Shown: positions 19,087 through 64,000 of the stretch, one piece after another
Layout: each line of letters starts with the position of its first letter
How positions within the stretch are numbered: the first letter of the stretch is position 1
Source of the DNA: Candidatus Bathyarchaeia archaeon
GTDB taxonomy: Archaea > Thermoproteota > Bathyarchaeia > Bathyarchaeales > Bathycorpusculaceae
NCBI GenBank assembly: GCA_049512075.1
Contig: JBEKXL010000005.1
Coordinates: forward strand, 69,847 to 133,846
DNA: 64,000 nt
Direction of reading: 5' to 3'
The notes under the pieces: model-generated
What the model saw: the letters and a program-made list of their open reading frames with translations, nothing else
The model's database searches: none
What the model was told of the DNA's origin: nothing
Position numbers and translations under genes: made by a program

Positions 19087-19290
19087 TTTCCCGCTTCTAC
19101 GATTTTACAAGTGCCAAGTTTAAATAGTTTGGTAGTTCGATGCCAGCGCGCGCGCTTTCGCATCTGGGGGTCAGGAGCTCGCCCATTCTTCATCGTTGAA
19201 CACTCCATTATAATCATGAATTCAATTCGTTTATTAAGAGTGCTTGCCCACCCTGCCGATTTGTATCAGTGCGTGCTAGTCTATGCGAGG

Positions 19291-20664
19291 TTAGCGGGCG
19301 TAAGCTATCCACTTGTCTTTTTCAAGCCTTGCGGTGTACCCTCTCTTCCTGAGTCCCTCGTAGAGTGGCGCACCAGCGTACTCCTTGTTGAGGACAACTA
19401 TATCCGCGAGTTCTGCCGCTCGTTCTTCAAAGTCGAGTTCCAATTTGGTAGCGTAGTCTTTTCCGCTGAAATACGAGATAGGGTAGGTGAACTCCTTGGG
19501 CAAAGCGGCTATGGTGCGTCCTTCAATCGCGGATATTTCCTTGAAAATCTCTGTGTCGGCCTCACTGACAAGATATTTCTGATGTCTGCCGAAAAGTCTC
19601 AACACGTAGTAGTAGCCTATAGCGATGCCCGCAACGATGAAAGGGGCGTAGGCCCATAACAGATTTGATGAATAATTAACTGCGGACGCAGCCCAGAAAG
19701 CCAATGGAAAAACCATGTACCCCAGATACCGCCATCCCTCACCTATTATTCTGAACCTCCAGAAATTGGTCAATACTGCGAATAGCGCTAACGTGATGAT
19801 CCATACAAATGAGGAAATCAATGAGGCTGAAAAAATGTTTCCCCAGAGGACAAATATCGAGGCAGTAAAGAATAGGATCCAAGGACAATAGATTGCCAAC
19901 GCTGCTGTCTTTCTCAGGGGGCTTTCGGTGCGACTGTATACGAATTGTTTCAAGTAGCTTGATTTCAAGTGGTCAACGTGGGCTTTTAGCACTTTAAGAT
20001 AATACCCCTTTGAGATAGCCCGGGAGATGAGGAAGCCCGCTGCGACAGAAAGCAGATAGTCAAATCTTCCGATGAACAGGAACGCCAAGGACGTGAAGAG
20101 TACTACTTGAGCCGCGAACTTGTGAAGCAGAAGAATGAAAGCGACTAATACGGAAATGACAAGGAAATTGAACCACGAAAAATTGAGGGAAAAGAGGTAG
20201 ATGAATGAAACCAAAAGAATACTAAGCGGTCGGATACAAAAGCAGAAAGTCTGCTGAAAAATCATAGGAGAACTCAAGTACACGCCCGCAGCCAGAGCCG
20301 CGAGCACGACATTGTTCGTTATCAGAATCGTTGAAATAGTAAGAATGAGCGAGATGAAAGCGTCTGCAAGAGCCGGACCGTATTTCACCATTGGTTTCAC
20401 GAAGTTTTCTGGAATAACAGCCAGCAAATAGAAAAAAAGCGGAGGATAATACTTGTCCGCTTCAACGCTTTCTCCTCTGATTCTGCTGGAAAGCTTGAAA
20501 CCGTGTTCTCTTATCTTCTTGGCATCAATCAGAAATATCCAGGTATCGGCGCTGGACAGAAACATTCCCTTCAGTCTTCTGCCTAGGTAGAAGTGCCACT
20601 GAGTAAGTCTCGCAAAAAAAACGATTGCGCCAAGGAACACTGAAGGCAGCAAATCTAGTCCCAT
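19291..20664 (-). CDS. Multi-pass membrane protein, possible GT-C glycosyltransferase
   Basis: About 11 hydrophobic segments, YYPPLF and GEGWRY motifs, glycan-cluster context. Confidence 0.6.
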   Translation of the reverse strand: MGLDLLPSVFLGAIVFFARLTQWHFYLGRRLKGMFLSSADTWIFLIDAKKIREHGFKLSSRIRGESVEADKYYPPLFFYLLAVIPENFVKPMVKYGPALADAFISLILTISTILITNNVVLAALAAGVYLSSPMIFQQTFCFCIRPLSILLVSFIYLFSLNFSWFNFLVISVLVAFILLLHKFAAQVVLFTSLAFLFIGRFDYLLSVAAGFLISRAISKGYYLKVLKAHVDHLKSSYLKQFVYSRTESPLRKTAALAIYCPWILFFTASIFVLWGNIFSASLISSFVWIITLALFAVLTNFWRFRIIGEGWRYLGYMVFPLAFWAASAVNYSSNLLWAYAPFIVAGIAIGYYYVLRLFGRHQKYLVSEADTEIFKEISAIEGRTIAALPKEFTYPISYFSGKDYATKLELDFEERAAELADIVVLNKEYAGAPLYEGLRKRGYTARLEKDKWIAYAR

Positions 20665-20881
20665 CTCAAGGCCTTCGTCTTATCATTAGACAAAATATAA
20701 CAAAGCCGACGCAATATAACCTCTTACTTCAAACGTCAGGTTTTGCATCTTGCCTCTCAGATGGAGCTATGCATTTGCATAGTGCGTGGCGTGCATGACG
20801 AAAAAGCTATGAACAGAGGATGATTTCTTATATGCTAGCGCGTGGGAGAAATTGCGAACGCGAAGGTAATGGTGTTGAACA

Positions 20882-21628
20882 ATGCGTCTGAAAGATAAAG
20901 TATGCATAGTAACTGGAAGCTCCAGAGGTATCGGGAAGGGAATCGCAACAGCATTCGCAAAAGAAGGTGCAAAGACAGTAATCAACTATTGCTCTCAAGA
21001 AGACGCGGCAAAGGAAACTGCAAATGAGATTGTTCAGAAATATCAGACTGATGTAGAAATTGTAAAATCAGATGTTTCGAAAGAGGAAGAAGTTGTTAAG
21101 ATGGTCAAAATAACAAAGGAGAGATTTGGGACTGTAGATATCTTAGTCAATAATGCTGGTGTACATAACGATAGAGTTGTCTGGAAAATGGATAAAAACA
21201 TCTGGGATGAAGTAATGTTCACCAATCTCACAGGAGTCTTTCTTTGCACAAAACATGTAGTACCTGTGATGAGGGAGAAAGGGTGGGGAAGAATCGTAAA
21301 CATTTCATCAGTGGTCGGGCAGACAGGATTATTCGGTGCAAGCAATTATGTTGCATCAAAATCTGGTCTTTTTGGTTTTACAAAAACAGTTGCTAAGGAG
21401 GTCGCTAATAGAAACATCACTGTCAACTGTGTCGCCTTTGGCTATATTGAGGCAGGCATGAACCTTAGACTGACAGAAGAAACGAGGCAAAAAGTTCTAC
21501 AAGAAATCCCCATGAAACGCTTTGGAAAGATAGAGGAGGTGGCTAGTCTAATTGTGTTCCTGTGCAGCGATGAAGCCGCATACATTACAGGTCAAGTAAT
21601 TCATATTAATGGTGGTTATTATGGGTAG
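20882..21628 (+). CDS. Short-chain dehydrogenase, FabG/PhaB-like
   Basis: TGSSRGIG, VNNAG, NISSV, YVASK, GQVIHINGG. Confidence 0.88.
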   Translation: MRLKDKVCIVTGSSRGIGKGIATAFAKEGAKTVINYCSQEDAAKETANEIVQKYQTDVEIVKSDVSKEEEVVKMVKITKERFGTVDILVNNAGVHNDRVVWKMDKNIWDEVMFTNLTGVFLCTKHVVPVMREKGWGRIVNISSVVGQTGLFGASNYVASKSGLFGFTKTVAKEVANRNITVNCVAFGYIEAGMNLRLTEETRQKVLQEIPMKRFGKIEEVASLIVFLCSDEAAYITGQVIHINGGYYG

Positions 21629-21636
21629 GTGGAACT

Positions 21637-22833: not shown

Positions 22834-23006
22834 GTGTCTATGCATAGGGAAAGAGTTGGAAGATTCTGCGATGATCACCAAGCTCAAAAATTCTGCACAC
22901 CCCGCCCGCGATTTTTGGAACAGCGCACGCGAAGACGGAGTTGAAGGTACCGTGATAGGGGTGTGGCGAAATTAGACAAGGAACCAAAAAAGTAGGAGAC
23001 GTTGCC

Positions 23007-23777: not shown

Positions 23778-23816
23778 CATCGATTCTCGGATGACGTTTC
23801 ACGTTAAAGCTAACCA

Positions 23817-24869: not shown

Positions 24870-25035
24870 CCTTCCACGACTGTCACATCAATATATATGA
24901 ACTGACTATGGATCGTGCTAACTGAATACCAAACAGTACTCGGTTTTTCTTATTATCTTTTCTGCATGGGTTTCTAATAGTACTCGGGATGTTTCTTAAC
25001 GTCGCGCGCGCGTTCAAGATAAGGGCTTTGCATTT

Positions 25036-26001
25036 CTAGTAGAACTTTGGATGTTTCGTAATGTCTTTAGCAACCTCAGCCAAGCCCGCTTCAAATCCAA
25101 CTCTAGGTTTGAACTTCAACATTTTTTCTATTTTTGAAATATCAGCCTGCCGTCTGCGCACAATAATCTTTTGTTCTTTTTGGTAATCCGGCTCGAGCTT
25201 GCTGTTGAACAGCTTGATCACGGTTTCTGCAAGCATTTTGACTGAAGTTGAAACGCCGCTCCCCACGTTAAATGCTTCGCCCCAAACATCACTTTCTGCG
25301 GCAAGAATGTTGGCGTCTACCACATCGTAAACGTTCACGAAATCCATTGATTGGCTACCGTCACCGGAAATGACCGGCGGCTTTCCCCCCTGAACATTCT
25401 TCATAAAATTAATTATCACAGACGAATAAAAGGCATCAACGCTCTGTCTCGGACCGTAAACATTGAAGTTCCTCAGAATGTTATATTTCAGTCCTTTAGG
25501 CGCAAAGATTTTCAAGGCATATTCTCCGGCGATCTTGCTAACACAATACGGAGTTATGGGGTTGAAGGGGTGCTTTTCATCCATGGGAAGGTACTGTGGA
25601 TTTCCATAAACTGAGGCTGAAGAAGCAAATATTAGCTTTTCAACCCCTGTGTCTGACGCTGCTTTGAAAACGTTGAAGCTTCCGTCTACGTTTATCTGGA
25701 TGCTTTCTTCTGGATGCGCAACGGAATAGTTAATGCAGACAGCGGCTTCGTGAAAAACGTATTTTGCGCCTTTCACAACGTCGCGGACAGTCTGCGAATT
25801 CCTTATATCACCTTCAATGAATTTCGCCTTCTTGGCGTCAACCAGATCCTGTATGTATTCGCATCTTCCTCTTGTCAGATTGTCCAGTATAACAACATCG
25901 TATCCTAAATCAACAAGCTTGTGTGACAGGTGTGAGCCGATGAAACCTGCGCCTCCTGTGACTACGACTTTATTCTTCGGCATGGTCTTTACTCTCAACA
26001 T
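25036..26001 (-). CDS. NAD-dependent nucleotide-sugar epimerase/dehydratase
   Basis: TGGAGFIGS, ASSASVYG, YCVSK, RNFNVYGPRQ. Confidence 0.9.
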   Translation of the reverse strand: MLRVKTMPKNKVVVTGGAGFIGSHLSHKLVDLGYDVVILDNLTRGRCEYIQDLVDAKKAKFIEGDIRNSQTVRDVVKGAKYVFHEAAVCINYSVAHPEESIQINVDGSFNVFKAASDTGVEKLIFASSASVYGNPQYLPMDEKHPFNPITPYCVSKIAGEYALKIFAPKGLKYNILRNFNVYGPRQSVDAFYSSVIINFMKNVQGGKPPVISGDGSQSMDFVNVYDVVDANILAAESDVWGEAFNVGSGVSTSVKMLAETVIKLFNSKLEPDYQKEQKIIVRRRQADISKIEKMLKFKPRVGFEAGLAEVAKDITKHPKFY

Positions 26002-26080
26002 GTATCAGAAACAATAATGTTAAAAACGTTTTCTCCTTAAATAGGAAAACCTTGCGATACTAAAGACAAGAAAGCTGGCA

Positions 26081-29894: not shown

Positions 29895-29897
29895 TTT

Positions 29898-31022: not shown

Positions 31023-31617
31023 GTTTACACATCCTTCGACATTGCATGTCTAAATAACAAAACACGGACATAGAAAGCGACAAAGTATCGAATTCGGTAA
31101 AGCGTTTGAGTTCATACAGAATACTCTTCAACCTTCTGAATAGATTCTTACCATTACGAAACGCTCTCTTTACTGGCAACGCACTATCAAGATCGGACCT
31201 ATTAATAAATACTATTCGACAACCTGCACGTGCCAATTCCGCACGTGCATCAACGCCTAGTATCGTGTTAGTCCTTACCCCACTAGTGCGGTATATCAAC
31301 GTTTATTATCCCGTTTCTGAACACTGACAAGAGTCGAGATTACTGCTTGCACCATTCGGAAGATACGTAAGTGGCCTTTGTGCCCGGTCAAATGGCCTAT
31401 CGGAATTCGCGGATACCCCCCTGAGACAAGATTTAATTCGCGCGCGCTCCAAAGAACCGACTGAAGCCGAGACTTTGGCAATTGCATTATTTAAAAGCGC
31501 AGCAAAGGCCGAATTCGGATGCTTGAGCATGGATGATCATTTGAAGAGTGCTCTGAACTATTCTCCTGTGGTTAAGGGAAGCAGCAAATCGCATATAGAT
31601 CGAAGCCACAGTTTCAA

Positions 31618-43729: not shown

Positions 43730-43913
43730 CAACATCGAAATGTTACAATGCAACATTACATCTGACGTTACAAATAAACGGAACGGGTTAGCTCTGAACG
43801 GAGGTCCAGGCCCGTTTTCTTCATGGTTTGTTACAATCCACATTACATCGGACATTACAAACAAAAAGAGGGGGGGGCAAAAACAAAACATCGCGATCTT
43901 GTAAAACATAATG
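43730..43913 (+). repeat. Dispersed intergenic repeat, copy A
   Basis: Two ACATTACATC(T/G)GAC(G/A)TTACA motifs ending at 43772 and 43859; homologous to 49027..49142 and 63624..63809 in reverse orientation. Confidence 0.9.
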
Positions 43914-44082
43914 CGCGCGCGCTTGAAAAATGCACGCACTCCGAACGGTAAAGCCCATGCTTCCGTAATGCACGGTATAGGGCAGCATAGCGCGTGTGTA
44001 GAGTGAATAAAAAAGTGCGAAAGAGTCTAAGATGCGTCAGCAGAGTTTAGTGTATGAAACGCACACAATGAACTCTGAGATT

Positions 44083-44265
44083 TTACTCGACCACTTGGAT
44101 TGCACTTTCGGGGCATTGGACTTCGCATGCTCTGCACACGAGGCATTCTTCAGATTTGACAGCGACGGACTTCTTCTCCTTGACCTCGTAGACACCTACC
44201 GGGCATGTATCAGCACACGTGCCGCATCCAGTGCACTTAGCATTATCTATGACTATTTTCACCAT
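44083..44265 (-). CDS. 2[4Fe-4S] ferredoxin
   Basis: CTGCGTCADTCP and CLVCRACEVQCP. Confidence 0.92.
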   Translation of the reverse strand: MVKIVIDNAKCTGCGTCADTCPVGVYEVKEKKSVAVKSEECLVCRACEVQCPESAIQVVE

Positions 44266-48147: not shown

Positions 48148-48735
48148 ATGAGCATATCGCCTGTTAAACGTTTAGTTCTTGAAACCATATGGTTGTTGGA
48201 CAGACCTGCAAAGGCCACGGAGATAGCAAAAGAGGCTGGACTGGGTTTTCCGCCGGTTATGATGCACATTCTAGGACTCACAAAGATGGGACACATTGAA
48301 ATGCCAGAAAAAGGAATGTACGTCATAACGGAAAGCGGCAAAAAAATGCTCGGCCTCCCCGATATCAGCAGGGAAAAGGCGGCTGAAATCCTCGCGTACT
48401 TGCCAATGGAAAAATCGTTCCACTTCTACGCCGACATCGGCAAGCCTCTCAACGTTCATGCCGCAAGCCTGGGTGACTTCTGCGACAAAATCCAGAAAGT
48501 TGACCTGTCTTCTATAGAGTTTCACATCGACCGCGGCGATTTCGAAGCTTGGTTTGCCGGGTTAGGCGATGCAGAACTCGCAAGGAAAACGCTGCTCGTC
48601 CGAGAAGAAAAGATAGCCGGAGAGGACCTGCGCAAGAAGCTCTACGAAATAGTGAAAACCCGTTGCGACCTGCTGGCAAGAACAAGGAACACGGCGCTAC
48701 GGCCAGAGCCTTCAACCAAAATCAGGCTGGCTTGA
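48148..48735 (+). CDS. Winged-helix plus DUF5752-like domain protein
   Basis: N-terminal HTH; FHFY...G...ASL..F...SIEFH..RGDFEAW...LGDAELA. Confidence 0.7.
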   Translation: MSISPVKRLVLETIWLLDRPAKATEIAKEAGLGFPPVMMHILGLTKMGHIEMPEKGMYVITESGKKMLGLPDISREKAAEILAYLPMEKSFHFYADIGKPLNVHAASLGDFCDKIQKVDLSSIEFHIDRGDFEAWFAGLGDAELARKTLLVREEKIAGEDLRKKLYEIVKTRCDLLARTRNTALRPEPSTKIRLA

Positions 48736-49026
48736 ACCGTCCCTTAAGCTTCTGAAGAACCTGCTACAACGTCATATACTCTATCTAGCGCGCGCAGGCA
48801 AGTGGATAGCTGCAGTACAAAACGACATTATAGAAGGAAAACTCGGCAAAAGAAGTCGTTGAACGAGCAGGGGCAAAATACCCAAAGACTTTTCGTAATG
48901 AAAATTCCTAAAATGCATATATGTTGCTCTAAAAAGTGGCGCGCGGCTTGGTGCCCGCGTTGTCAATTCAAGTATGCTGAAACACCTTTTGCATCATAGC
49001 CTTTCGAAGTCGCTTCCCTTTTTCAC

Positions 49027-49142
49027 TTGTAATGTCAGATGTAATGTGTATTGTTACAAACCATGGAGAAAACTAGGCTGGACTACTGTTCAGAGTTGAC
49101 TCAGCCCGTTTATTTGTAATGTCAGATGTAATTTTCATTGTA
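49027..49142 (-). repeat. Dispersed intergenic repeat, copy B (core only)
   Basis: TGTAATGTCAGATGTAAT at 49028 and 49115 (87-bp spacing), with a conserved spacer. Confidence 0.9.
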
Positions 49143-49297
49143 TTAGTCAGGGATTGTAGGTAGTGTTGCCCGTGGCACAAAGCCAGAATGGTTAGTTTGG
49201 CAAGCTTACTAGCGCGCGCTTTTAAAAAGATGTTCCTGAAGAACCTGATAGAAGAAACCGTGAAATAATAAGAGTTCCAATACTGGATTGCGAGGGC

Positions 49298-49804
49298 GTG
49301 CTTATGGGTGAGTTGAGAGTCATATCTGCGAAGATTCCTGATGAAGTTTACAAGGAAATGATTCTGCGCATTCCTGAAGGAGATCGAAGCAACTTCATTC
49401 GCGACGCTATCTTGGAGAAGCTGCAGAAAACGCCCAAGCCCGATAGAATTCTAGAACTCGAGGGCAGATTTGAAAAGATGGAGAAGGACTTTTCAGAAAT
49501 CAAGAAGTACCTCGGAGACCTTGAACTACTCACATATGAACGGGGAAAAACCAACCCGCACGCTTTCGGAATGGACGAGACAGACCACAAAATGATCGAT
49601 TACCTCGTGCACTACAAAGGGGCAACTACGCCTGAGCTGGCCCAGTACTTGAAGACGAACAGGTGGCTGGTCTTGAACAGGTTGAGAAGAATGCAGAAGA
49701 CTTCCAAGAAACAGCTCGGAAAATCAATAATAGACTATTATCCTGGGGAAAGGTCAGGCAAGAAAAAGGCTTGGTGGATAAACGAAGAATTGGCCGAGAT
49801 GTAG
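49298..49804 (+). CDS. Ribbon-helix-helix, coiled-coil and winged-helix regulator
   Basis: VISAKIPDE...RSNFIRDAI (RHH); ATTPELA...VLNRL (HTH). Confidence 0.7.
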   Translation: MLMGELRVISAKIPDEVYKEMILRIPEGDRSNFIRDAILEKLQKTPKPDRILELEGRFEKMEKDFSEIKKYLGDLELLTYERGKTNPHAFGMDETDHKMIDYLVHYKGATTPELAQYLKTNRWLVLNRLRRMQKTSKKQLGKSIIDYYPGERSGKKKAWWINEELAEM

Positions 49805-49848: not shown

Positions 49849-49965
49849 GGGCCCGTAGCCCAGTCAGGATTAAGGCGTCGAACCGCAAACCGGTGCGCAA
49901 GCCTCCGGGCATCAAGCATGGAAGAAAGCCGGAGAACAGGGGTTCAAATCCCCTCGGGCCCGCCA
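49849..49965 (+). tRNA. tRNA-Arg(CCG) with two BHB introns (29/30 and 37/38) and encoded CCA
   Basis: Removing 49881..49900 and 49909..49926 gives the anticodon arm TCGGC-CTCCGGA-GCCGG. Acceptor GGGCCCG/CGGGCCC; T arm AGGGG-TTCAAAT-CCCCT. Confidence 0.88.
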
Positions 49966-50668: not shown

Positions 50669-50952
50669 CTTTTCATCTCTCCCGTTATTTCATCGCAACT
50701 CGTTATTATCGCTTGCGCTCTTTTCCATTGCCTTGTTGTCTCAGGCTTTTACTCCATGTCCTGTTGGCGCTGGAAAGGCGCATGCTAACGCAGAATCGGT
50801 ACTGGCTTTGGCTATATGTGTGCGCACGGCAATCAGACTCTTACAGGATAATCAACCGAGGGGACTAATTCGGACTCCCAAAAAACTTGTGGTGCGCGCC
50901 AAAACTTATAAGACGTCACCCACCTAAAGATTCAGACAACGGAGCGATATGA

Positions 50953-51327
50953 ATGGCGAGACAGGAAAAAGAGAAGAAAGTCATGACGAAAGATCGCCTG
51001 ATAGGCATGCAGGTAATCGACAATGAGGGAAACGACGCTGGAACCGTTCAGGACATCGCATTCACCGTGGGAAAAGTGGGCATGACATTGATTGTTGAAA
51101 GCAAAAAGGGTGAAACCAAGGAAATCCCGTGGGAAGAAATCCAGGCTGCAGGAGACTTCGTCGTTCTGAAGCCCGAAACGGCACAAGCACGACCTTTTGG
51201 TGGCCAACCGATGGGCCAACAGCTTCAGCAGTCACAAACGCCAACCTGCCCAACGTGCGGAGGCCCTCTGACCTACATTCAGCAGTATCAACGATGGTAC
51301 TGTTACAAAGACAAGAAGTACGTCTAA
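50953..51327 (+). CDS. PRC-barrel protein with a C-terminal Zn-ribbon-like tail
   Basis: LIGMQVIDNEG...GTVQDI...IPWEEIQAAGDFVVL; Gln-rich linker; CPTCGGPLTYIQQYQRWYCYKDKKYV. Confidence 0.85.
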   Translation: MARQEKEKKVMTKDRLIGMQVIDNEGNDAGTVQDIAFTVGKVGMTLIVESKKGETKEIPWEEIQAAGDFVVLKPETAQARPFGGQPMGQQLQQSQTPTCPTCGGPLTYIQQYQRWYCYKDKKYV

Positions 51328-51802
51328 GATGCGCAAAGAAGGAACATGAAAATCTACACTTTTTGTGTATGACTAGTTTCTGTGTTGCTCTGAAAGAAAA
51401 AAGGGTTTGTTTAAGGATATTTTTTGCAGTTGGTGTAGTACCAGCGGTTGTATTGTGCACGTAGGTCAACCGCTTTCCGCAGGTTTGCGCGCGCATAGAA
51501 CAAAACTGTTGACGACGAATAGTCCTGTGAACTTCACCATGTCCCTCCACGACAATAGCCGGCGCAGCAGCGCTAAGGACAATGACACCGAACAGGAATC
51601 CTGTCAGACTCGCGGCAAGAGAATCATGCAAATAACCTTCAGTGAGACTCATTCAGACCACCACTGCATCACAATGAACTTTTTTTCACGAGTTCTACGT
51701 ATTTAGATTTTATCACGCGCTTCACTGACTATGGAGATGCACCAAAAAATGTTAAATACTCAACGACGAAATATGGTGCATTAGCGACTTGAGGAAATTT
51801 GT

Positions 51803-52426
51803 ATGACTGAAAAAGCAGAAGCCTACTTGATTGACTACATTGCTGTCGGAGTGATAGGATTTGTCATCGGACAAGCAATCGCAAGCGTCGGTGGATTCCA
51901 GAGCTTATTCTCAGGTGTGGCAGCAGCAACATTCAGGTACGTAGGTCCCGATTGGGGAAGAATAGTAGGAGCTGACGTTATCACCGGCATCTTCGCGTTC
52001 CTCCCAGCGGGTTTCCTGGCCGGATACCTTTGTTATAAGCTGCTCAAAGCGGAAGGAAAAATGGAAGGCTTAGCAGGCGGCTTTATGTCCTTCATAGTAT
52101 ACTTGATAATTACCTTGATAGTGACGCTCGCCCAAACTGGCATCTGGGGAAACATGGGATTAGACTTAGGAATAGGAGTGGAGCTTTGGGTCGTGCTCAT
52201 GGTGTTTGCTCTGATATTCTTCCCGATAGGAGGCTTCCTTGCAGGCATGATTCACGAGATGAAAACGCCGATGCCATCCTTCCTGAGAATGCAATTCCAG
52301 AGAGGCCCTGCAGCTCCTCCACCTCCTCCGGGCACGGCAACAACATGCCCCACCTGCGGCGGACCATTAAGATACATCGAGCAATACAAGAAATGGTACT
52401 GCGACAAAGAAAAAAAATACGTTTAG
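51803..52426 (+). CDS. Membrane protein with a poly-Pro linker and the same C-terminal tail
   Basis: About 4 TM segments, PPPPP, CPTCGGPLRYIEQYKKWYCDKEKKYV. Confidence 0.8.
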   Translation: MTEKAEAYLIDYIAVGVIGFVIGQAIASVGGFQSLFSGVAAATFRYVGPDWGRIVGADVITGIFAFLPAGFLAGYLCYKLLKAEGKMEGLAGGFMSFIVYLIITLIVTLAQTGIWGNMGLDLGIGVELWVVLMVFALIFFPIGGFLAGMIHEMKTPMPSFLRMQFQRGPAAPPPPPGTATTCPTCGGPLRYIEQYKKWYCDKEKKYV

Positions 52427-52524
52427 CAAACAACCATTCCTTTTTTCTTGTTGATACGCGCGCGCAAACGGGCGCGACGACCTGCTGATGAGAGCGCAAC
52501 AGTAGGTGAGAACCAAAAACCACG

Positions 52525-53103
52525 CTAATACTGGCCTGTCAGTTTGTGCATCAGCTCCATTTCGAGGGTTTCCTCTTCTATCTTGAAGGTTTCAGGCTCG
52601 TCCTTTTTCAGTATGGCCTTCAGTTCTTCAGCCGTAAGCTGAGTCACGAGTCGGAGTATCTCTCTTTTTGCGTTTTCAAGATGCTTCCGCAGCAGCTGCT
52701 TGTCTTGGTACACCGCTCCTGAGAGTTGGCATATACTCTTCATCTTGACGAACCATTCAATCTTTCGTGTCTTGACGTTTATGTCGAAAGTGATGGGTCC
52801 CGCCACGCAAGTTTCGGGTTTCACGGGGTGAATGACACACTTTTTCGTTTTCTTGTCATGAAACACGCAGTAGCCGCCAACAACTAGCCTTGGAAAAACA
52901 TACTCCGTCCGCTGGAACGAGTTTGAGATGGATATTCTGTTTTTCTTCAAGTAAGCCTCTATGAGTTTTCTGCGTTCAGGCGTCACTGGCGGTGTCGTAT
53001 CGTTGCAGCAGGAATAGCTGGTTCCGCAGTTGCTGCATACGTCGAAGAAATTGCTCTGTCTTTTGTTTGCATTTTTGCTCAACGTTTGGCTCTCCGTTTG
53101 CAA
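52525..53103 (-). CDS. YkgJ/CxxCxxCC family cysteine-cluster protein
   Basis: CSNCG..SCC, CVFH, CVIHPVKPETCVAGP. Confidence 0.8.
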   Translation of the reverse strand: MQTESQTLSKNANKRQSNFFDVCSNCGTSYSCCNDTTPPVTPERRKLIEAYLKKNRISISNSFQRTEYVFPRLVVGGYCVFHDKKTKKCVIHPVKPETCVAGPITFDINVKTRKIEWFVKMKSICQLSGAVYQDKQLLRKHLENAKREILRLVTQLTAEELKAILKKDEPETFKIEEETLEMELMHKLTGQY

Positions 53104-56467: not shown

Positions 56468-57060
56468 CAGATAACTGTCTTTTCACCCTCTAACACAGTG
56501 TGTCACCTTGTAACATGTCTGTTGAACGGTCTCAGTTCTCGTGACTTGTGGAAGAATCAACAATGGAATTGAACGCGCGAGATTGACATGAAAAACAAGG
56601 CGTATCTCAGCCTTCACAGCCGAGATTCAAGGAGACGATGTTACAGACTGATTTTCTGTAATATAGTATGAGGAAGGGCAGAGGGGCAGTATTTCTCTTT
56701 TTGAGCATTGGCAATTTAGTTAAGGCTTATCTCAGGAGCTGGCAGGCTTGCTGTTGCGCGCACGCGTGTTCCTAAAATGGTTGAAAATGGTCTTCAGTCC
56801 GTTCTTGCATGTACAGGTTCATTATGGATTTGCTGGATGAGCGTGTTTTAGCTCTGCCCAAGGAATAGAAACTATTATATACCAATTTCGGGACAAGGCG
56901 GCGCGCAAAATAGTGCCACACAAATTATAAAGGAACGCAATTTTCAGTTCCCCCTTTTTCTCATGCGCGTTGAAAAAACGATCTTCTGGACAGATAGAAT
57001 TCCAAAGCTCACCGCAGGCTAAACTCTGGAGTTTGAAAAGCCAGGGTTCTTTGCTATATG

Positions 57061-57174: not shown

Positions 57175-57240
57175 CCCTAAGCCTCAACAAGTTTGTAAGC
57201 CTTGAATGGATATAAGCGAAATTGCGATAACGCTAGTATG

Positions 57241-57411: not shown

Positions 57412-57537
57412 TCGCCCAGGCGCGCGAATAGAAGATTCCTCTAGAACTAGAATCCATGATTCTAATATATCTCTTGCGTACAGAACCCGAACCAGAAAGG
57501 AGAAGCTGGGGAACCAGCAAAATCGTCAGAGTGATTA

Positions 57538-59763
57538 ATGCGCATGGCTAAAAGCACTAGCTCATTTGTTCATACTGGTCAGCCACAAAAAGCTTGGACT
57601 GCGAATGAGGCGAATAATAACGTGCCCGTCTGCTTTGAACAGGAGGCATCCAAACAGACGAGGAAGTTGCATCAGACCATAGTCAACCTGGAGAATGAAA
57701 AACGAACTCTTCTCGGCGAAATGAAAACTCTTGAAGCCAAAGCAATGCGCGGGTGGACAGGGATGAGTCGCAGACAGGTATATTCCATCGTAATGCTGGG
57801 AATCATTATGACTGCGATAGTCATTTTTGTTCCTCCGTTTTTCATAGTTCCTTTTGCTTCTGGAAACCTGCCGCTCACAACTCTGGACAAGCAAACAAAG
57901 CTTGTCTCTTACCTGCGAGAAGTTCAATCTTATCCAAACATCTTTCTCGCTGTTCACGGTTACGATCACAAGTGTCCCATCGATGGCTCGACTGGGTACG
58001 AGTTTCTATGTCCCACCGGGCAGCTTTCGCTTGAAGAAATAAACCGACGAATTGAAGCTGGCATCGACATATTCGAAAAGTGCGGTCTGGAAATTGACAC
58101 ATACGCTTTTCCAGGCCAATATTATGATCAAAGAATACTCTCCGTCCTAAGGAATTACGCCCCCACAGCCTCAGTATATAACAAGACAAAGCTGGTAGGA
58201 CTCGGGTTGACAGCAAATTCCTCCCTGACAGATATTATCGATTACTACGGTTTCAGGGAATACACTTGGATGTGGCGCGACGGTGTTTCCGAAAAACAAT
58301 TCCAGGACGCGCTGAATCAGCTTTACCAGGACAAGCCTAGCCTACTTTTGGTACACGTCCAAGACATAACAAACCAGACACTCAACCTGCTTAAAGAATA
58401 CGCCCTTCTTCAAGGTAACGCAGGAATTATTCGGCTGGACGACATAACATTTGACAGCCATGTGGAAGCGACCAAAAAAGTGGTAGACCTCGCGATTGCG
58501 TATAACGTCAGCCTAGTCTTGGCAGTAATCCCGGCTTCTCCGTACACAGGGGGAAGCTCAAACAGTTTCTTTTCTGACACCATGATTGACGCTCTCTGGG
58601 TGATTTCAACAAGTCTGTTCGTTTTCCCTATAGTCGTCATGCTACCGTGGGCGCTTATTTTCAAGATGAAAAAGCGGAAGCCTTATGCAAAGTGGAATCC
58701 TCACTGTCCCATGGTCAGCATAATACTCCCCGCCTACAACGAGGAGAAAACTATAGCTAAATCCATCGAACGAAGTTTGAGCCAACGCTACAAAGGCGGC
58801 ATCGAGGTCATCGTCGTAGACGACGGAAGCACAGACAAGACTTATGATATCGCCAAAACATACGCTGACAAACATGCTAACGTAAGAGCCATTCGACTGG
58901 AGAAGAATCAAGGCAAATCACACGCTCTGAACATGGGTTTTGCACAGGCAAAAGGTGAAATCTCGGTGTTCTCCGACACGGACAGTGTCTTGGCTCCCGA
59001 AGCCATCTCCAGGATGATTTCTCACTTCAAAGACTCTGAAGTTGGCATGGTAGCCGGGATGGTTGTGGTAGGAAACGAAAAAAACTTGTTGACACGCTTG
59101 CAACAGATCGAATATCTTCTTAGTCAGACGATTATTCGATTTTGTCAATCATCACAGAAGAACGTTCTAATATGTCCCGGCGCTTGCACGGCCGTGAGGA
59201 CGGATATAACAAGAAAAATCCCTGTGACGGACAGGACCGTAACCGAGGACGCAGACTTCACGTTTTCGGTCCGGAAAGAAGGATGGAAAATCTGCCAAGA
59301 ACCTGAATCGGTCAGCTATACAGAAGCCCCAGGAAATCTGAGAAGTTTAATAACCCAAAGAAAAAGATGGCTGTACGGAAGTTTGCAGACCATCGCAATT
59401 CATAAGTGGGCTGCAAAAGAAGGAAACCCTTGGGTCTTAAAAGCTTGGCTTGAATGTTTCCTAAGTCCATTCGCCCTGCTTTTCATTGCATCTCTTCCCT
59501 TGCAATACCTTTTCCTGGGTAACAGTTTCCCCTTGTTTCTCCTCACGTATGGACTGCTGCCCTTGACCATTCTGGGAATCAGCGGAGCCATAGGCGTAAG
59601 ACTCTTCAACAAAGGTGAAAAATCAAAACTCGCCTTTCTGATGCCGCTTTATGCTGCATACCAGTTGATGATGAACCTGCTTCTGGTATGCATGGTCTTA
59701 GCCTTCGTAACCAAGAGAGGAATACACCTTACACGCGGAGGAAAGATCATCCACGCGATCTGA
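57538..59763 (+). CDS. DUF2334-like deacetylase fused to a processive GT2 (PgaC/IcaA/CesA-like) synthase
   Basis: HGYDH and IRLDD; PAYNEE, DDGSTD, GKSHALN, DTD, TED, QRKRW; C-terminal TM helices. True start may be about 57763. Confidence 0.88.
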   Translation: MRMAKSTSSFVHTGQPQKAWTANEANNNVPVCFEQEASKQTRKLHQTIVNLENEKRTLLGEMKTLEAKAMRGWTGMSRRQVYSIVMLGIIMTAIVIFVPPFFIVPFASGNLPLTTLDKQTKLVSYLREVQSYPNIFLAVHGYDHKCPIDGSTGYEFLCPTGQLSLEEINRRIEAGIDIFEKCGLEIDTYAFPGQYYDQRILSVLRNYAPTASVYNKTKLVGLGLTANSSLTDIIDYYGFREYTWMWRDGVSEKQFQDALNQLYQDKPSLLLVHVQDITNQTLNLLKEYALLQGNAGIIRLDDITFDSHVEATKKVVDLAIAYNVSLVLAVIPASPYTGGSSNSFFSDTMIDALWVISTSLFVFPIVVMLPWALIFKMKKRKPYAKWNPHCPMVSIILPAYNEEKTIAKSIERSLSQRYKGGIEVIVVDDGSTDKTYDIAKTYADKHANVRAIRLEKNQGKSHALNMGFAQAKGEISVFSDTDSVLAPEAISRMISHFKDSEVGMVAGMVVVGNEKNLLTRLQQIEYLLSQTIIRFCQSSQKNVLICPGACTAVRTDITRKIPVTDRTVTEDADFTFSVRKEGWKICQEPESVSYTEAPGNLRSLITQRKRWLYGSLQTIAIHKWAAKEGNPWVLKAWLECFLSPFALLFIASLPLQYLFLGNSFPLFLLTYGLLPLTILGISGAIGVRLFNKGEKSKLAFLMPLYAAYQLMMNLLLVCMVLAFVTKRGIHLTRGGKIIHAI

Positions 59764-60137
59764 CAACAAAGCAATTCTGCTCCAACATCATGGAGTCGTT
59801 TGAACCAGAACTTGTTTTGCAGCCTTCAAAACGCGTCTGGGCCGAACCAGATACGCGCGCGAGGCAAACACTCTAATGACGCACGGAAACAGTTCAAATT
59901 CTGAAACCTTCGCGTTCCACATAATACTCCATCCGTTTCGTTTACGCGCGCGCTATTACCCGCTCGCAGTATGTGCTCGTTGAGCTGCTAGACGCACAGC
60001 CGAATGCTTGACTTTCAGAGCTGGTCCAACTACTGAAGAACCCTGCCCAACTCGCGCAGTCTGAAGCTTGGGTAGAAGATAGTTTCATAAGTCTTAAAAA
60101 GATCACGGGTTGAGAATACTCGAGGGAGAAGGACAGA

Positions 60138-61511
60138 ATGTCATCTGTTCGAAGCAATAGGAAAGTCCGAGATAGTCTTATCATAACAACAATTCTTATG
60201 ATAGCGTCCGTTGGCTTGCTGATACAGGTCAAGTCAGTATCGGCCGCAACATGGGATCCCTCCCTCGGATGGGATTTCGAGTGCCACACGAACACTCACC
60301 CAAGCCTCATTGACATGAGTACCGCCGCGATAATCGCGGAGCTGCAAGCCGTCAACACCGCTTTTCAATCACACGGCTACCCGCCTCCGCAGCACATGGC
60401 ATACCCCTACGGCGACTACAACTCAACCGTCGAAGGCATCGTATCCCGATACCGAAAGTCAGCGCGAACCGTCTCAGACTACATGACAAAATATCCAGTG
60501 ACAAACTGGTACGAGATGAACGCTGCCCAACTCGTCGCCACCACAACAAAGACCGACATCACCAACTGGGTAGCTCAATGCATCTCCACCAAATCACTAC
60601 TCCTCATATTCACCCACGATGTTTCAGCAAACCCGTCTGAATACGGCTGCACACCAGCCATGCTCACATATCTCCTAGACAACCTCGTCACACAGCAAAA
60701 CGCCGGCAAAATCGTCGTCATGACCATGGCCCAAGCATACGACTACTGGCACAACGCCGCAACTCAACCCAAACCAACCGTCGTAGTTAGCTTCGACGAT
60801 GCCCACGAAAGCGACTACCTTGTAGTCTACCCACTCTTCACGGCGCGAGGCTTGAAAGGCACAAGCTACATCGTCACCAGCTATATCGACTGGCAAGACC
60901 AACTCAGCTGGGCCGAAATCGCAAAAATGAGAACAAGCACTATAACCGTTACTGCTCCGAACGGCGGACAGAGCTGGGTGAGGGGCACGGTTCACTCAAT
61001 AACGTGGGCTTCTACGGGCAGCCCCGGGGCCAACGTCAAGATTGAGTTGTTGAAGGGCGGCGTGCTGAACATGGTCATATCGTCGAGCACGGCGAATGAC
61101 GGTTCCTACAGCTGGACCATCTCTTCCACGCAGACGCTTGGAACTGATTACAAAATAAGGATCACGAGCGCAAGCAATTCGGCGATCACCGACTCCAGCA
61201 ACAGCAACTTTGCCATAACTGTGGGGGCATTGACCGTTACTGTTCCGAACGGAGGACAGACATGGGCGAGAGGTTCCGTCCACACGATAACGTGGGCTTC
61301 TACGGGCAGCCCCGGGGCCAACGTCAAGATTGAGTTGTTGAAGGGCGGCGTGCTGAACATGGTCATATCGTCGAGCACGGCGAATGACGGTTCCTACAGC
61401 TGGACCATCTCTTCCACGCAGATGGTAGGAAGCGACTACAAGATCAGGATAACGAGCACGTCAATCACGGCGATCACAGATTCTAGCGACAGCAACTTCG
61501 CCATCAGCTAA
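60138..61511 (+). CDS. Secreted CE4 polysaccharide deacetylase (permuted) plus two Ser/Thr-rich Ig-like repeats
   Basis: Signal peptide; HTNTHP, AYPYG, FTHDV, then SFDD; two copies of TVT.PNGG..W..G....ITW...D.S...F.I. Confidence 0.85.
   Translation: MSSVRSNRKVRDSLIITTILMIASVGLLIQVKSVSAATWDPSLGWDFECHTNTHPSLIDMSTAAIIAELQAVNTAFQSHGYPPPQHMAYPYGDYNSTVEGIVSRYRKSARTVSDYMTKYPVTNWYEMNAAQLVATTTKTDITNWVAQCISTKSLLLIFTHDVSANPSEYGCTPAMLTYLLDNLVTQQNAGKIVVMTMAQAYDYWHNAATQPKPTVVVSFDDAHESDYLVVYPLFTARGLKGTSYIVTSYIDWQDQLSWAEIAKMRTSTITVTAPNGGQSWVRGTVHSITWASTGSPGANVKIELLKGGVLNMVISSSTANDGSYSWTISSTQTLGTDYKIRITSASNSAITDSSNSNFAITVGALTVTVPNGGQTWARGSVHTITWASTGSPGANVKIELLKGGVLNMVISSSTANDGSYSWTISSTQMVGSDYKIRITSTSITAITDSSDSNFAIS
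60999..61422 (+). repeat. 136-bp identical intragenic repeat (60999..61134 and 61287..61422)
   Basis: Direct comparison; 288-bp (96-aa) period. Confidence 0.9.
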
Positions 61512-61610
61512 AGGGCACGCAACTGAGTGAAGCCTAAGCGGACCATCCTTTTCCACTCTTTTTCTATATCGCCTTGTTCACTATGAGTGCTGTGGCTACC
61601 ACCACTCTAA

Positions 61611-61892
61611 AGCGCGTGCGCTAACACATATTTCGAGAATGGAGGACCCTTCGCCGAGGCAATAGGGAGTTTCCAAGAGGATTTGGGCGAGATGAAAATG
61701 GTGAGGAACAGAATAGCGCACTGTTCGCGGCATTCAAGAACCAAATTTGAGGACTTTGTCCGCCAAGAACTCGGTCATGTCCCGATCTCCCGCCCAGGAG
61801 AGCTACTGTCAGCCAAATTTGCCACAAATCAGACTTATTTTGAGCACTACAGCAATATCTTGAAAGGCCTAGGCAAGTTTATTGTTAAGTGA
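61611..61892 (+). pseudogene. HEPN-domain C-terminal fragment
   Basis: The open frame from 61611 contains MVRNRIAH (R-x4-H). It is preceded by an in-frame TAA and begins at GCGCGTGCGC. Confidence 0.5.
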
Positions 61893-61990
61893 AAGAATCG
61901 AGCATGTGTATAGAGTTTCTTCTGTCAACTTGAGCGTCGGTTAATCTGGGTCTCCTTCTTATTGAGATAGACCTTCAGCCAATAACACGT

Positions 61991-63361
61991 GTGCTAACAG
62001 AGTTTCGTGACGCTCAAATACTTCTTGGGCCGAAAACGAGGGCAACTCTAGCGCGCGCGTTGGTCAGCACAACAACCTTCAGCGAGATTAAGGGTTGGAT
62101 AGACACCTGTATTGCTCGCAAGGCGCTGCTGCACATATTCACGCATGATGTGTCATCGAAGCCGTCTGAATACGGTTGCACTCCGGCAATACTTACGCAA
62201 ATGTTGGACTATCTGGTTCAGAAACAAAGTGCTAGCCAACTGACGGTTATGACGGTGGCCCAGGCATACGATTACTGGAGCACCGCCACGGCGGGCAAAG
62301 CAACCGTGGTCGTTAGCTTCGACGACGCAAACGAAAGCGACTACACAGTCGTCTATCCCCTCTTCGTAGCACGAGGGTTGAAGGGCACGAGCTACATCGT
62401 CACGAGCGTCATAGACGAATCTGACCAGCTGACCTGGACTGAGATAGCCACGATGAGAGGAGCCCGTCCCACTTACGCCGTTCATTTGGAGTCCAAGCAG
62501 AATTCGAGCGCAACCGTCAACCTTGGAACCATAACTCTTGGCGGCACTTCGCACAGTCTTCCGAGCAACATTTCTGAAACTGCTGAGACTTATCAGGCAC
62601 AGTTCTACGCAGCATCAGGATACGCTTTCGATCATTGGGAAACAACGGGCAGCGTCACCGTAACGAGCGCAACTGTCAACCCGGCAACGGTGACTGTCAA
62701 AGGCGCTGGAACACTGAGGGCCGTTTACAAGGTCGGCACATCTGTTCTCTTTGCAGACGGCTTTGAGTCCGGCACTTTCAGCACTTGGACGGGCACAGGA
62801 GTTACCTCCGGTGAGACCACAGCCGTCGTCAAAACGCTCCCACACCAGGGAGCCTATTCTGCCAAGTTCACGTCAAACGGCGCCGGCGGATTTGAGTATG
62901 CTTACTGTTACAAGAGCATTGCTTCTTCAGGCGAGCTCTACGGCAGCGGATACTTCTATGTGTCCAAGTCAGGGATTGCGAGTGAGGGTAACCGTTTCTT
63001 CCCAATCGTGTTCACTGCTGGAGGCAACCCTGTGGCGTATGCTGGTTGGGTAAGGGTGGGCGGCGTCGTCAGGTGGAACTTGCTCGTCAGGGATGGAACA
63101 GGCTGGGCGACAGTCCACTCTGCGACTAGTCCCCTGCTGAACAGGTGGTACACTGTTCAGCTTCACTGGAAGAACAGCGCTTCAGGCGGTGTTGGCGAGC
63201 TTTGGGTGGACGGCACACTAGTATGCTCCATCACTGGCAAGAACACAGCCGCGTACGGAAACGCGAATCAAGCGCGGTTCGGGCTGCCCGAACTCTACAA
63301 CTGCGGTGCCACTTCAGTCTACTGCGATGACTGCACAGTATCCAGAACAAAGATAGGATAG
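61991..63361 (+). pseudogene. 5'-truncated paralog of the permuted CE4 deacetylase, with B-repeat-like and ConA/LamG-like domains
   Basis: Homology to 60138..61511 starts at about 62060 (LVSTTT...FTHDV...SFDD). No signal peptide and no HxxxH. GYAFDHW, LFADGFESG, NRWYTVQL, ELWVDG. Confidence 0.7.
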
Positions 63362-63623
63362 GCCACTCACATCTGCGCCAAAAGCGCCCAACACCCCAGA
63401 ATTCTCTTTTAGCCCAGCTATAAACGAGCATTTTCAGAACAGCGCGCGCTTACAATCACAGTCCGAAGAAAATAACCTTCAGTTTAGTTGAAATAAGGTC
63501 AATGATTTTGTTTGGGCAGAAGATCCTTGAAAAAATCATGTGAAGAAGAGAGAGTATCAACAGCGCGCGCGTTTTTTTGTACTCTTCAAAAGCGACCCCC
63601 GCCTTTTTTTTATTTACGTCTGA

Positions 63624-63809
63624 CATTATGTTGTTTTACAAGATCGCGATGCTGTGTTTTTGACCCCCCCTCTTTTTGTTTGTAATGTCCGATGTAATGT
63701 GGATTGTAATAAACCATGAAGAAGACAGGCCTGGACTGCCCTTCAGAGCTAATCCGTTCGGTTTATTTGTAATGTCAGATGTAATGTTGAATTGTAAAAT
63801 TCGATGTTG
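63624..63809 (-). repeat. Dispersed intergenic repeat, copy C
   Basis: TGTAATGTC(C/A)GATGTAATGT at 63681 and 63768 (87-bp spacing), plus an inverted motif TTACGTCTGACATTA at 63614..63628. Confidence 0.9.
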
Positions 63810-64000
63810 TGAGGTGACATGCATAACTGGCTCTAGCTGTTAACACAGGCGTGTACGGCGTTGGTTTGGGTATTAGCGCGCTGCCTTGTCCCGAAATTGG
63901 TGTAAAATGGTAATAATTCTTGTTTTCGGGTTTAGGGGCAGTTTTGAGGCTCATATGTGTTTTTAGCCCTTCTGTGTGCCTTGACTTTCAAGATGGGCTA

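Follow-up and report, generated by a model that had tools for sequence, protein, structure and literature searches.

Alternating-CG tracts at rearrangement joints in a Bathyarchaeia genome as candidate scars of rejoined DNA breaks

How does one short palindrome come to recur again and again in the spacers of an archaeal genome? The window, a stretch of 64,000 nucleotides analysed here from a Bathyarchaeia contig, holds 13 alternating-CG runs of 8-10 nt, with 14 matches to GCGCGCGC when overlaps are counted. In 100 dinucleotide-preserving shuffles, the chance level for GCGCGCGC in the window was 0.87 ± 1.04 and none of the shuffles reached 14, in agreement with the guess of an earlier sequence-only reading that about one random 8-mer should be expected; the coordinates which that reading had given for the 13 runs, and for nine others of 6-7 nt, proved correct throughout. 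Six further 6-mers were found beyond its list, at 5071, 26511, 30497, 38953, 55960 and 56574, and at least four of them fall within long ORFs.

The whole genome, a 2.73-Mb MAG of an uncultured Bathyarchaeia archaeon from peat, carries 581 alternating-CG runs of at least 8 nt, including 284 of 8 nt, 186 of 9 nt and 105 of 10 nt, with only six of 11 nt or longer. The genome-wide distribution of run lengths dips at 7 nt (n=195), and a comparable bump is absent from every other alternating dinucleotide. The enrichment holds under a Markov background as well, since GCGCGCGC is the commonest 8-mer of the genome, with 646 sites and an observed/expected ratio of 14.5 in an order-3 model. The consensus of the tracts is (T)A(GC)4-5T(A), with flanks that are otherwise unique; the flank logo is flat past position -2 and the conserved part covers only 8-12 nt.

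The motif was found in all four of the other genus genomes searched, at 168-460 sites each; the suspected genome-wide signal is thus confirmed, extends to the lineage and stands far above any background. Contigs from three other public peat metagenome runs are letter-identical to the window at 48200-48998 and 50905-53000, stretches which contain the runs at 48788, 51487 and 52457. As the tracts are present both in the four genus mates and in contigs of three other runs, comparison with related and independent assemblies shows that they are not an assembly artefact. The consensus, the length range and the non-coding bias are all seen again in a genome from another family (39% GC), in which no GCGCGC-ended repeats were found. 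The distribution is patchy, with tracts in several families of Bathyarchaeia and in a single lineage from another class, and a literature search found no paper on these GC tracts.

The tracts had been described as restricted to intergenic DNA, which is nearly but not strictly true, since 494 of the 581 runs are intergenic, while 8 lie across a gene edge and 79 count as 'coding'; these assignments come from a home-made ORF model in which coding DNA makes up 77% of the genome. Among these 79 runs, 25 lie at most 60 nt from a predicted start, and the density is 0.79 runs per kb in non-coding DNA versus 0.038 in coding DNA. In the window, 11 of the 13 runs fall outside all ORFs of this crude model. 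All three kinds of spacer carry tracts, at no fixed distance from starts or stops. Small genes often have tracts on both sides, and fragments of genes stop at tracts, as seen in 4 of 14 integrase-family matches.

The comparison which bears most on the origin of the tracts is that with a sister genome of ~94.6% identity, carried out on this one genome pair over 80% of the sister genome and with the crude gene model. Both 150-nt flanks could be paired in the sister for 8 of 81 runs, whereas the same test paired 273 of 600 points placed at random in intergenic DNA and 406 of 600 in coding DNA; the runs occupy fast-changing, variable DNA. Pairing over more sequence recovered 63 of 340 and 108 of 572 runs, giving 171 paired sites. 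The run is conserved at 52 of them (27 and 25 by direction, largely the same loci), and 47 differ by point changes, which may reflect either decay or creation by mutation. The run allele is 4-30 nt longer at 15 sites, the run stands where the sister keeps 100-4,400 bp extra at 45, and 12 show other length differences. Changes within runs comprise 62 base substitutions, with 20 C>T and 17 G>A among them, and 28 gap columns.

Among the 45 sites with a long sister allele, at least one boundary lies within a confident gene of that allele in 14 cases, and both lie in the same gene in five. Deletion is proven as the direction for these 14 gene-cutting cases only, and whole-gene differences are also compatible with insertion at a tract followed by tract loss. 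The genes that were lost are of ordinary kinds: Pfam matches were obtained for 16 of 24, such as aminotransferase, AIR-synthase-like, TauE, SDR and DNA glycosylase genes, and none of the 24 is a transposase or integrase. In ~25 of 31 long alleles, judged by eye, neither boundary shows a tract or a MITE end, which argues that the tract is new at the joint. In the other ~6 of 31 a boundary does carry tracts or a MITE end, and among 121 cases with one conserved flank a tract stands at the matching point of the sister in 17 and is missing there in 104; some tracts have therefore been re-used.

Viewed from the side of the rearrangements, 41 of 98 large indels between the two genomes (~42%) have a short allele with a near-(GC)4 stretch, defined as 8 nt with at most one mismatch from (GC)4, compared with 213 of 5000 strings drawn at random from intergenic DNA and 69 of 5000 drawn from the genome as a whole. 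Such a stretch is carried by 32 of the 54 joints with at least one extra nucleotide. Clean small insertions exist, for instance GCG[GCGCGCGC]GATACTG, and two small insertions show a 5-nt target duplication, as with a filled-in staggered break. Tract pairs can flank a remnant of 42-50 nt from inside the lost segment, and some segments have a tract at both ends where the other genome has just one.

Similar joints are found in the window, where the runs and repeats are given without a strand. The GCGCGCGCGC run at 43913..43922 is the joint of a deletion (site C5:113759), at which ~186 nt kept by the sister have become 23 nt with the run first; the deletion also removes the end of a ~200-nt intergenic repeat. 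Two GCGCGCGC runs, one at 48788..48795, 52 nt past the stop of the gene 48148-48735, and the other at 49212..49219, flank 416 nt absent from the sister genome. Homology to the sister stops within the first run, at a point where the sister carries a GCGCGC-ended MITE, and restarts ~26 nt beyond the second, the variable segment between 48788 and 49219 including a 7-nt run, GCGCGCG, at 48939..48945. The GCGCGCGCG run at 62051..62059 lies 60 nt inside the 5' end of the ORF 61991-63361, the start of which is probably set too early. The product of this ORF matches only the last quarter of a deacetylase domain, starting just downstream of the run, and the run may be a truncation joint.

On balance, the tracts are best read as filler, or scars, created at the rejoining of DNA breaks. 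Tract location, the direction of deletion in a sizeable subset, turnover and independence from the IS and MITE families are matters of observation, and we infer in addition that the filler arises as the ends are joined. A chromosome would break and be rejoined with a short self-complementary filler, (T)A-(GC)4-5-T(A), at the joint, usually of 8-13 nt and standing in for a lost interval of nothing to ~4.5 kb. The scar would be kept only where the extra 8-13 nt or the deletion is harmless, namely in spacers, in dead genes and in the variable gene pool. This would account for why intact genes have almost no tracts. The scar would later decay, chiefly via C>T and G>A. A possible route is that an end-processing polymerase or primase tails both ends with self-annealing alternating GC.

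More speculatively, and less probably than not, the scars might be the work of an undescribed archaeal end-joining system, in which self-complementary TA(GC)n tails on both broken ends would make any two ends cohesive and ligatable and would leave a sequence-defined scar at each deletion, insertion or gene capture. Such an agent would be able to move horizontally, and this would account for the scattered occurrence among several families of Bathyarchaeia and in another class. To our knowledge, no known end-joining system writes a constant sequence. Filler or N-nucleotides are left by Ku/LigD NHEJ in bacteria and by TdT in V(D)J joints, and such filler either has a variable sequence or is a copy of DNA close by. 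The tracts share with NHEJ filler that extra nucleotides stand where two non-homologous ends join, foreign to both sides and exactly at the joint, often with DNA loss; they differ in that one palindrome re-appears hundreds of times, in an abundance independent of Ku. A Ku-LigD operon is present in this genome (G000) and Ku-LigD in the sister (G031) too. Dependence on Ku/LigD was rejected, as Ku was not found in three motif-rich genomes (G085, G094 and G105) and, present in 89 of the 301 genomes of the class, shows no relation to tract counts. Co-occurrence with the tracts also failed in five motif-rich genomes for Ku, reverse transcriptase, PrimPol, Y1 transposase, N4/N6 methylase and GCGCGC-ended IS/MITEs.

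Should it hold that the tracts are written as breaks are rejoined, an activity of DNA repair or DNA writing would be implied that makes one fixed product and has no described counterpart. The scars would then be a natural barcode of genome rearrangement, by which gene loss and gain in uncultured archaea would be date-stamped, with about two in five large indels between the two sister genomes marked, and how fast and in what manner genomes shrink and the flexible gene pool changes could be read directly from sequence. An enzyme adding a defined self-annealing tail to DNA ends might also serve as a tool.

Among the other explanations, the one that survives best, though unlikely, takes the tracts as footprints or collapsed remains of a mobile element with TA-GCGCGC ends. 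Excision or slippage between the palindromic termini would yield TA-GCGC+GCGC-TA, and deletions would arise via recombination or aberrant transposition between copies. An IS of ~1.1 kb with a DDE_Tnp_1 transposase and MITE families of 150-490 bp are indeed present in this genome, with inverted repeats that begin GCGCGC, often with TA at both sides, amounting to 25 complete pairs and 79 terminus matches; for the scar reading this is an uncomfortable coincidence. If two (GC)3 ends were joined with an overlap of 4 or 2 nt, the product would be 8 or 10 nt long, with 10 as the upper limit, which fits the sharp length cut-off in this genome, and at site C14:8000 a MITE in the sister genome faces a 10-nt tract here. 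Excision footprints are left by Tc1/mariner and Ac/Ds, and the tracts resemble them as a short, constant, TA-flanked palindrome of two tips in a genome with GCGCGC-ended IS/MITEs. They differ from such footprints in showing no cross-genome co-occurrence and no TA duplication, and in replacing large unrelated segments. The terminus pattern has no match in nine motif-rich genomes (G085, G094, G105, G223, G256, G221, G103, G158 and G196) versus 79 here, and a transposon footprint was rejected on this ground and on the lack of a consistent TA duplication at the 15 small insertions. The transposase occurs in 41 of 301 genomes without correlation and was not found in the richest, a kind of absence that by itself is weak evidence in MAGs, which under-assemble IS, short MITE termini being less affected. 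Motif-poor genomes (9 and 14 sites) still have transposase copies 78-80% identical, and in 400 kb of G085 none of the tracts has a repeated flank beside it. The 45 tracts which replace unrelated DNA, five of them within a single gene, would take several element insertions per event.

A kinship with REPs, which are 20-40 nt long with conserved arms, was likewise rejected: the tracts have only 8-12 conserved nt and no arms, their flank logo being flat past -2, and Y1_Tnp was found in only 2 of 5 motif-rich genomes. The likeness of the tracts to REP/BIME elements, which have RAYT transposases (PMC2817692, PMC12306157), is that both are intergenic palindromes, hundreds per genome, patchy by lineage and associated with rearrangement.

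It is improbable that the tracts are pre-existing fragile or recombinogenic sites, at which Z-DNA, with (CG)n as its classic former, or another non-B structure would cause frequent breaks and hence rearrangement borders. Tracts do gather in variable regions and at homology breakpoints, a few long alleles have them as boundaries, and in the 17 shared one-flank cases different DNA lies beyond the same point in both genomes. This speaks for the sequence-only reading in so far as its proposed recombination hotspot ties the tracts to recombination broadly, but they look like the product of rearrangement: the unrearranged allele lacks the tract, at both boundaries of the ancestral longer allele in ~25 of 31 cases and at the same point of the sister in 104 of 121. 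Fragility explains neither hundreds of identical 8-10-mers nor clean insertions of 8-13 nt. A Z-alpha search gave no match, and neither did the search controls.

An integron-like role as core sites of a site-specific recombination swapping gene cassettes is very improbable. Integron attC sites and CALIN arrays hold single accessory genes between short palindromic sites in variable regions, and here too single accessory genes are bracketed by short palindromes in variable DNA. The genome has a 15-member family of zinc-ribbon tyrosine recombinases, and some segments with a tract on both sides face a single tract in the other genome. The flanks are unconserved beyond 2 nt, so there are no recombinase-binding arms of the attC kind, and an integrase in linkage was not seen; the recombinase genes, present in many copies, are dispersed and in part truncated, with 4 of 14 themselves cut short at tracts. 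Deletions run through genes, and the reading was rejected as both boundaries are free of tracts and MITE ends in ~25 of 31 long alleles. Protelomerase target cores of phages N15 and KO2, at which DNA ends are cut and resealed, have the form TA-CGCGCG-TA and resemble the tracts as alternating CG flanked by TA; unlike the tracts, they are single sites embedded in ~50 bp palindromes.

Least probable of all is a functional or methylation-driven palindrome like HIP1, arising by biased mismatch repair at methylated GCGC/CGCG or as the binding site of an abundant protein, with codon constraints excluding it from genes. HIP1 is common within genes, and a methyltransferase model has been proposed for it. 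The tracts, at least 85% intergenic (79 of 581 coding), come in as insertions at indel joints and in place of long segments, not by point change alone, lie in all three kinds of spacer and at no fixed distance from starts or stops, and are mostly unconserved even at 95% identity. The suggested methylase site found no backing within the families covered: the C5 cytosine methyltransferase PF00145 exceeded the Pfam cut-off in none of five genomes (this one and four genus mates), and the N4/N6 methylase PF01555 was not found in the single-contig, motif-rich G085. In favour stand the 52 conserved and 47 point-changed sites among 171, and the 37 of 62 substitutions within runs that are C>T or G>A, as expected for methylated cytosines. 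HIP1 of cyanobacteria, GCGATCGC, is, like the tract, a lineage-specific, GC-rich 8-bp palindrome and the most over-represented word of a genome (PMC6604393, PMC6105098).

The window has further runs and repeats. A GCGCGCGCGC run at 19146..19155 is intergenic, with the end of one gene 59 nt away and the next gene at 135 nt; the CGCGCGCGCG run at 25003..25012 is intergenic too, 23 nt from the stop end of the minus-strand gene 25036-26001. The CGCGCGCGC run at 31439..31447 lies in a divergent intergenic region, a GCGCGCGC run at 51487..51494 is intergenic, and the CGCGCGCGC run at 52457..52465 stands between two convergent genes whose stops lie 30 and 59 nt away. A pair of runs, CGCGCGCG at 59854..59861 and, 91 nt away, CGCGCGCGC at 59945..59953, occupies the spacer that separates a glycosyltransferase gene from a deacetylase gene. 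Another GCGCGCGC run follows 80 nt past the stop of the gene 61991-63361, at 63442..63449, and the GCGCGCGCG run at 63563..63571, within a weak 56-aa ORF, adjoins a copy of the ~200-nt intergenic repeat at 63589-63797. The MITE of 151 bp at 56756..56906, with GCGCGC at both ends (GCGCGC-ACGCGTGTTCCTAAA ... GGGACAAGGCG-GCGCGC), is a phenomenon separate from the tracts and explains two of the listed 6-nt runs; the GCGCGC at 63876..63881 is the first 6 nt of the IS/MITE inverted repeat, in which GCGCGC-TGCCTTGTCCC follows a TA. Whichever reading applies, even that of an unseen mobile element or of fragile sites, the motif is a practical annotation marker for pseudogenes and rearrangement borders.

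All the alternating CG runs listed for the window in the sequence-only reading were recovered (13/13 of 8-10 nt and 9/9 of 6-7 nt), together with six 6-mers that it had overlooked. Its estimate of roughly one 8-mer by chance was sound, as GCGCGCGC occurred 0.87 +/- 1.04 times in dinucleotide-preserving shuffles against 14 times in the window, a count equalled by 0/100 such shuffles. The supposed genome-wide signal also held under a Markov background: in the genome of the window (the Bathyarchaeia MAG G000; 2.73 Mb, 86 contigs, 47.5% GC), GCGCGCGC is the top 8-mer, with 646 sites or 14.5 times the order-3 expectation. CG runs in G000 drop from 8834 at 4 nt to 195 at 7 nt, number 284, 186 and 105 at 8, 9 and 10 nt, and then 3, 2 and 1 at 11-13 nt. 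None of the other five alternating dinucleotides in this genome shows a rise at 8-10 nt, their counts declining steadily with small-count noise at the long end.

The core of the tracts (runs of at least 8 nt) in G000 is GCGCGCGC, with A at position -1 in 67% and T at -2 in 38%, mirrored on the opposite side, and no conservation was found beyond position -2. The sequences bordering the 581 long runs are near-unique, the top 10-mer flank being seen three times, and one known intergenic repeat lies beside just 8-11 tracts, so membership in some larger repeat was rejected. The tracts had been described as restricted to intergenic DNA, and this was largely but not strictly the case: by our own ORF-plus-codon-score gene model, which is crude (2506 genes, 77% coding), 494/581 runs are intergenic, 79 are "coding" and 8 lie across a gene edge, with 25 of the 79 at most 60 nt from a predicted start. 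In the window, 11/13 long runs lie outside all ORFs of this model; of the remaining two, one falls within the opening 60 nt of a long ORF and the other inside a weak ORF of 56 aa. Tract density in G000 is 0.79 per kb in convergent, 0.63 in tandem and 0.52 in divergent spacers, and no fixed spacing relative to start or stop codons was detected; the presence in every spacer type without a favoured codon distance rules out a promoter or terminator as the main role. A tRNA gene at 13888-13962 (-) adjoins 4 kb of DNA at 38-40% GC (14000-18000) whose ORFs are short, probably the integrated element of the sequence-only reading; these 4 kb contain 0 tracts of at least 8 nt.

In total, 168-460 sites are present in each of the four other genomes of the genus, while other genera of the same family mostly have 0-30. 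Independent assemblies carry the tracts as well, since three more public peat metagenome runs yielded contigs that match the window letter for letter over 48200-48998 and 50905-53000, and the CG runs at 48788, 51487 and 52457 lie inside these stretches. The same check found no long identical contigs over 43782-44236 and 48998-49331, which hold the CG runs 43913 and 49212, and none of the joints seen in the metagenome contigs (48023/48099 and 49877/49927) coincides with a tract. The Rfam search of the window returned two tRNAs and nothing else; the tRNA match at 49849-49962 (+) is probably intron-bearing, because it is 114 nt long, and in the peat contigs 11 different letters take the place of 49 nt within it (49878-49926), which points to related populations having a variant intron.

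The motif has a patchy distribution among 301 genomes of the class: at least five other families include genomes rich in it, with 601 sites in G085, 373 in G094, 325 in G110 and 346 in G248; in such motif-rich genomes GCGCGCGC is about twice as frequent as CGCGCGCG. Counts can also differ sharply inside one genus, as in g102 (41 versus 300 sites). In 400 kb of G085 (39% GC), 84 runs of at least 8 nt were found, with A at -1 in 77% and T at -2 in 55%, 63 of them outside ORFs of at least 100 aa, and the length limit is softer than in G000 (11 runs of 11-14 nt). The 12-mer TAGCGCGCGCTA, which occurs 16 times in G000, extends to another class of the same phylum, where 8/14 genomes of genus g126 (family f43) contain it (G326, G354, G382, G442, G396, G403, G448 and G347). 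The counts in these eight, listed from highest to lowest, are 35, 28, 26, 14, 11, 9, 4 and 1 sites, compared with 0-1 in controls. The positive g126 genomes tend to be larger, at 1.8-2.3 Mb for 7/8 versus 1.2-1.8 Mb for the negatives. No paper describing the motif in archaea appeared among the listings and abstract openings returned by a full-text literature search.

Comparison with the sister genome G031, a single pair covering 1.85/2.33 Mb of G031 at ~94.6% identity in shared DNA, placed a subset of the tracts at joints. Both 150-nt flanks were paired in the other genome for 8/81 runs, compared with 273/600 random intergenic points and 406/600 coding points. With all data, 63/340 runs (G031 to G000) and 108/572 (G000 to partial G031) were paired, and a single flank was found for 122 and 173 runs, respectively. 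The 171 paired sites comprise 52 conserved, 47 point-changed, 15 in which the run allele exceeds the other by 4-30 nt, 45 in which the run occupies the place of at least 100 nt kept in the other genome, and 12 others. In 31 clean cases the two genomes share both flanks, and flank-(0-3 nt)-GCGCGCGC-(0-3 nt)-flank stands opposite 130-4420 nt of unrelated sequence. For 14 of the 45 replacements at least one boundary falls inside a gene called with confidence in the long allele, the version keeping the DNA absent at the tract, and for five both fall in one gene, so that in those cases the allele with the tract is derived, by deletion. The genes hit are ordinary cellular genes, with transposases or integrases in 0/24.

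Approached from the indels, the short allele bears a perfect run of at least 8 nt in 20 of 98 large ones and a 6-7 nt run in 13. A match to (GC)4 with at most one mismatch is present in 41/98 short alleles, compared with 213/5000 random intergenic strings, and in 32/54 of the joints with extra nucleotides. The smallest fillers consist of the run alone, or the run plus A, TA or ATA on the left and T, TA or TT on the right, and a pair of tracts may enclose a 42-50 nt remnant of the middle of the lost segment. In the window, 186 nt of G031 correspond at the deletion joint 43913 to 23 nt beginning with the run, and the runs 48788 and 49212 flank 416 nt missing from G031.

The simplest account has each tract arising at the joint while a break is being resealed. 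It would then persist only in dispensable DNA and would decay through transitions; inside the runs of the 47 point-changed sites, C>T accounts for 20 and G>A for 17 of the 62 base substitutions. Our preferred guess for the source of the constant self-complementary TA(GC)nTA is that both ends gain an alternating GC tail by reiterative synthesis and then anneal, a suggestion that draws on the palindromy of the tracts and their range of lengths rather than on any gene found here, and leaning on the classical slippage chemistry of polymerases.

Pre-existing hotspots at which recombination takes place, as the sequence-only reading had proposed, explain a minority of the tracts. Their position at indel joints agrees with that proposal, and a G031 tract stands at the same point in 17/121 one-flank cases, but about 25 of the 31 long alleles, judged by eye, have no tract or MITE end at either boundary.

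Excision footprints of the form TA-GCGC+GCGC-TA, left by IS/MITEs ending in GCGCGC, at first looked an attractive source because the inverted repeats of these elements begin with GCGCGC after TA. The 6-nt runs are in part a separate thing, namely the start of such repeats (TA, then GCGCGC-ATGCNTGTTCCTAAA or GCGCGC-TGSCTTGTCCC). The inverted repeats read GCGCGC-T-GSCTTGTCCC and GCGCGC-AT-GCNTGTTCCTAAA, with TA on the flanks in most, and bound both 150-490 bp MITEs and an IS of ~1.1 kb encoding a DDE_Tnp_1 transposase (plus DUF772), intact on contig C39 of G000 (about 6538-7652) and broken by stops on C32 (7468-8577); copies in the window lie at 56756-56906 and from 63876 onward. The footprint reading fails in co-occurrence: the transposase is present in 41/301 genomes, some of them poor in tracts despite holding copies of 78-80% identity, but was not found in the genomes with the most tracts. 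Its ends in those other genomes likewise read (G)CGCGCT-GSCTTGTCCC. The terminus pattern, with 79 matches in G000 (the most among the 301), has 0 in nine tract-rich genomes. Moreover, no repeated flank adjoins the tracts in the 400 kb of G085, and the duplicated TA is missing from the 15 small insertions. MITE presence or absence between G000 and G031 could be read for few copies, the flanks being alignable for 2/25 and the pattern missing one family. The IS630-type (DDE_3) transposase (347 aa) of contig C58 (1927 bp), which lies beside AT-rich DNA, was rejected as a source, being GC-rich, without GCGCGC termini and probably foreign. C58 looks circular at ~1.8 kb, as its first 127 nt recur at the end, and may be a binning contaminant because its composition is unlike that of G000.

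Candidate enzymes were sought in five motif-rich genomes (G000, G031, G085, G094 and G105), of which the three from the other family are MAGs only 85-88% complete, which weakens every absence. Reverse transcriptase (RVT_1) was found in 0/5, Prim-Pol in 1/5, Y1 transposase (Y1_Tnp) in 2/5 and N4/N6 methylase (N6_N4) in 4/5. The suggested methylase site was not borne out, no C5 methyltransferase exceeding the cut-off in five genomes of the genus; the z-alpha profile gave 0/5, with its controls equally silent. Ku was found in G000 and G031 and not in G085, G094 or G105, and its occurrence in 89/301 genomes bears no relation to tract counts. A complete Ku-LigD operon, also present in G031, lies outside the window on contig C16 of G000 (5124-8090; 571-3536 of locus L200) and encodes a LigD polymerase domain of 280 aa, Ku of 270 aa and a ligase plus phosphoesterase of at least 434 aa that runs off the locus.

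A ~200-nt intergenic repeat, also present in G031, occurs in the window at 43737-43913 (+), 63589-63797 (-) and 49027-49142 (-) and adjoins two tracts. Two copies of ACATTACATCTGACATTACAA enclose its GC-rich middle, and it has a G-run tail; ACATTACA and TACATCTG are among the top over-represented 8-mers of G000. The repeat has no Rfam match, and its predicted fold is no better than those of shuffled sequences (z = -1.6). G000 also holds a nine-member family of IS6/IS240-like transposases with a SWIM finger. The gene cluster at 57538-63361 encodes a PgaC-like family-2 glycosyltransferase of 741 aa and, after it, two polysaccharide deacetylases, and the N-terminus of the second, directly after tract 62051, matches the domain end only. 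Tyrosine recombinases with an InsA-type zinc ribbon form a dispersed family of 15 (e.g. C10:65117-66445 and C14:54897-56054 of G000), several members of which are truncated exactly at CG tracts.
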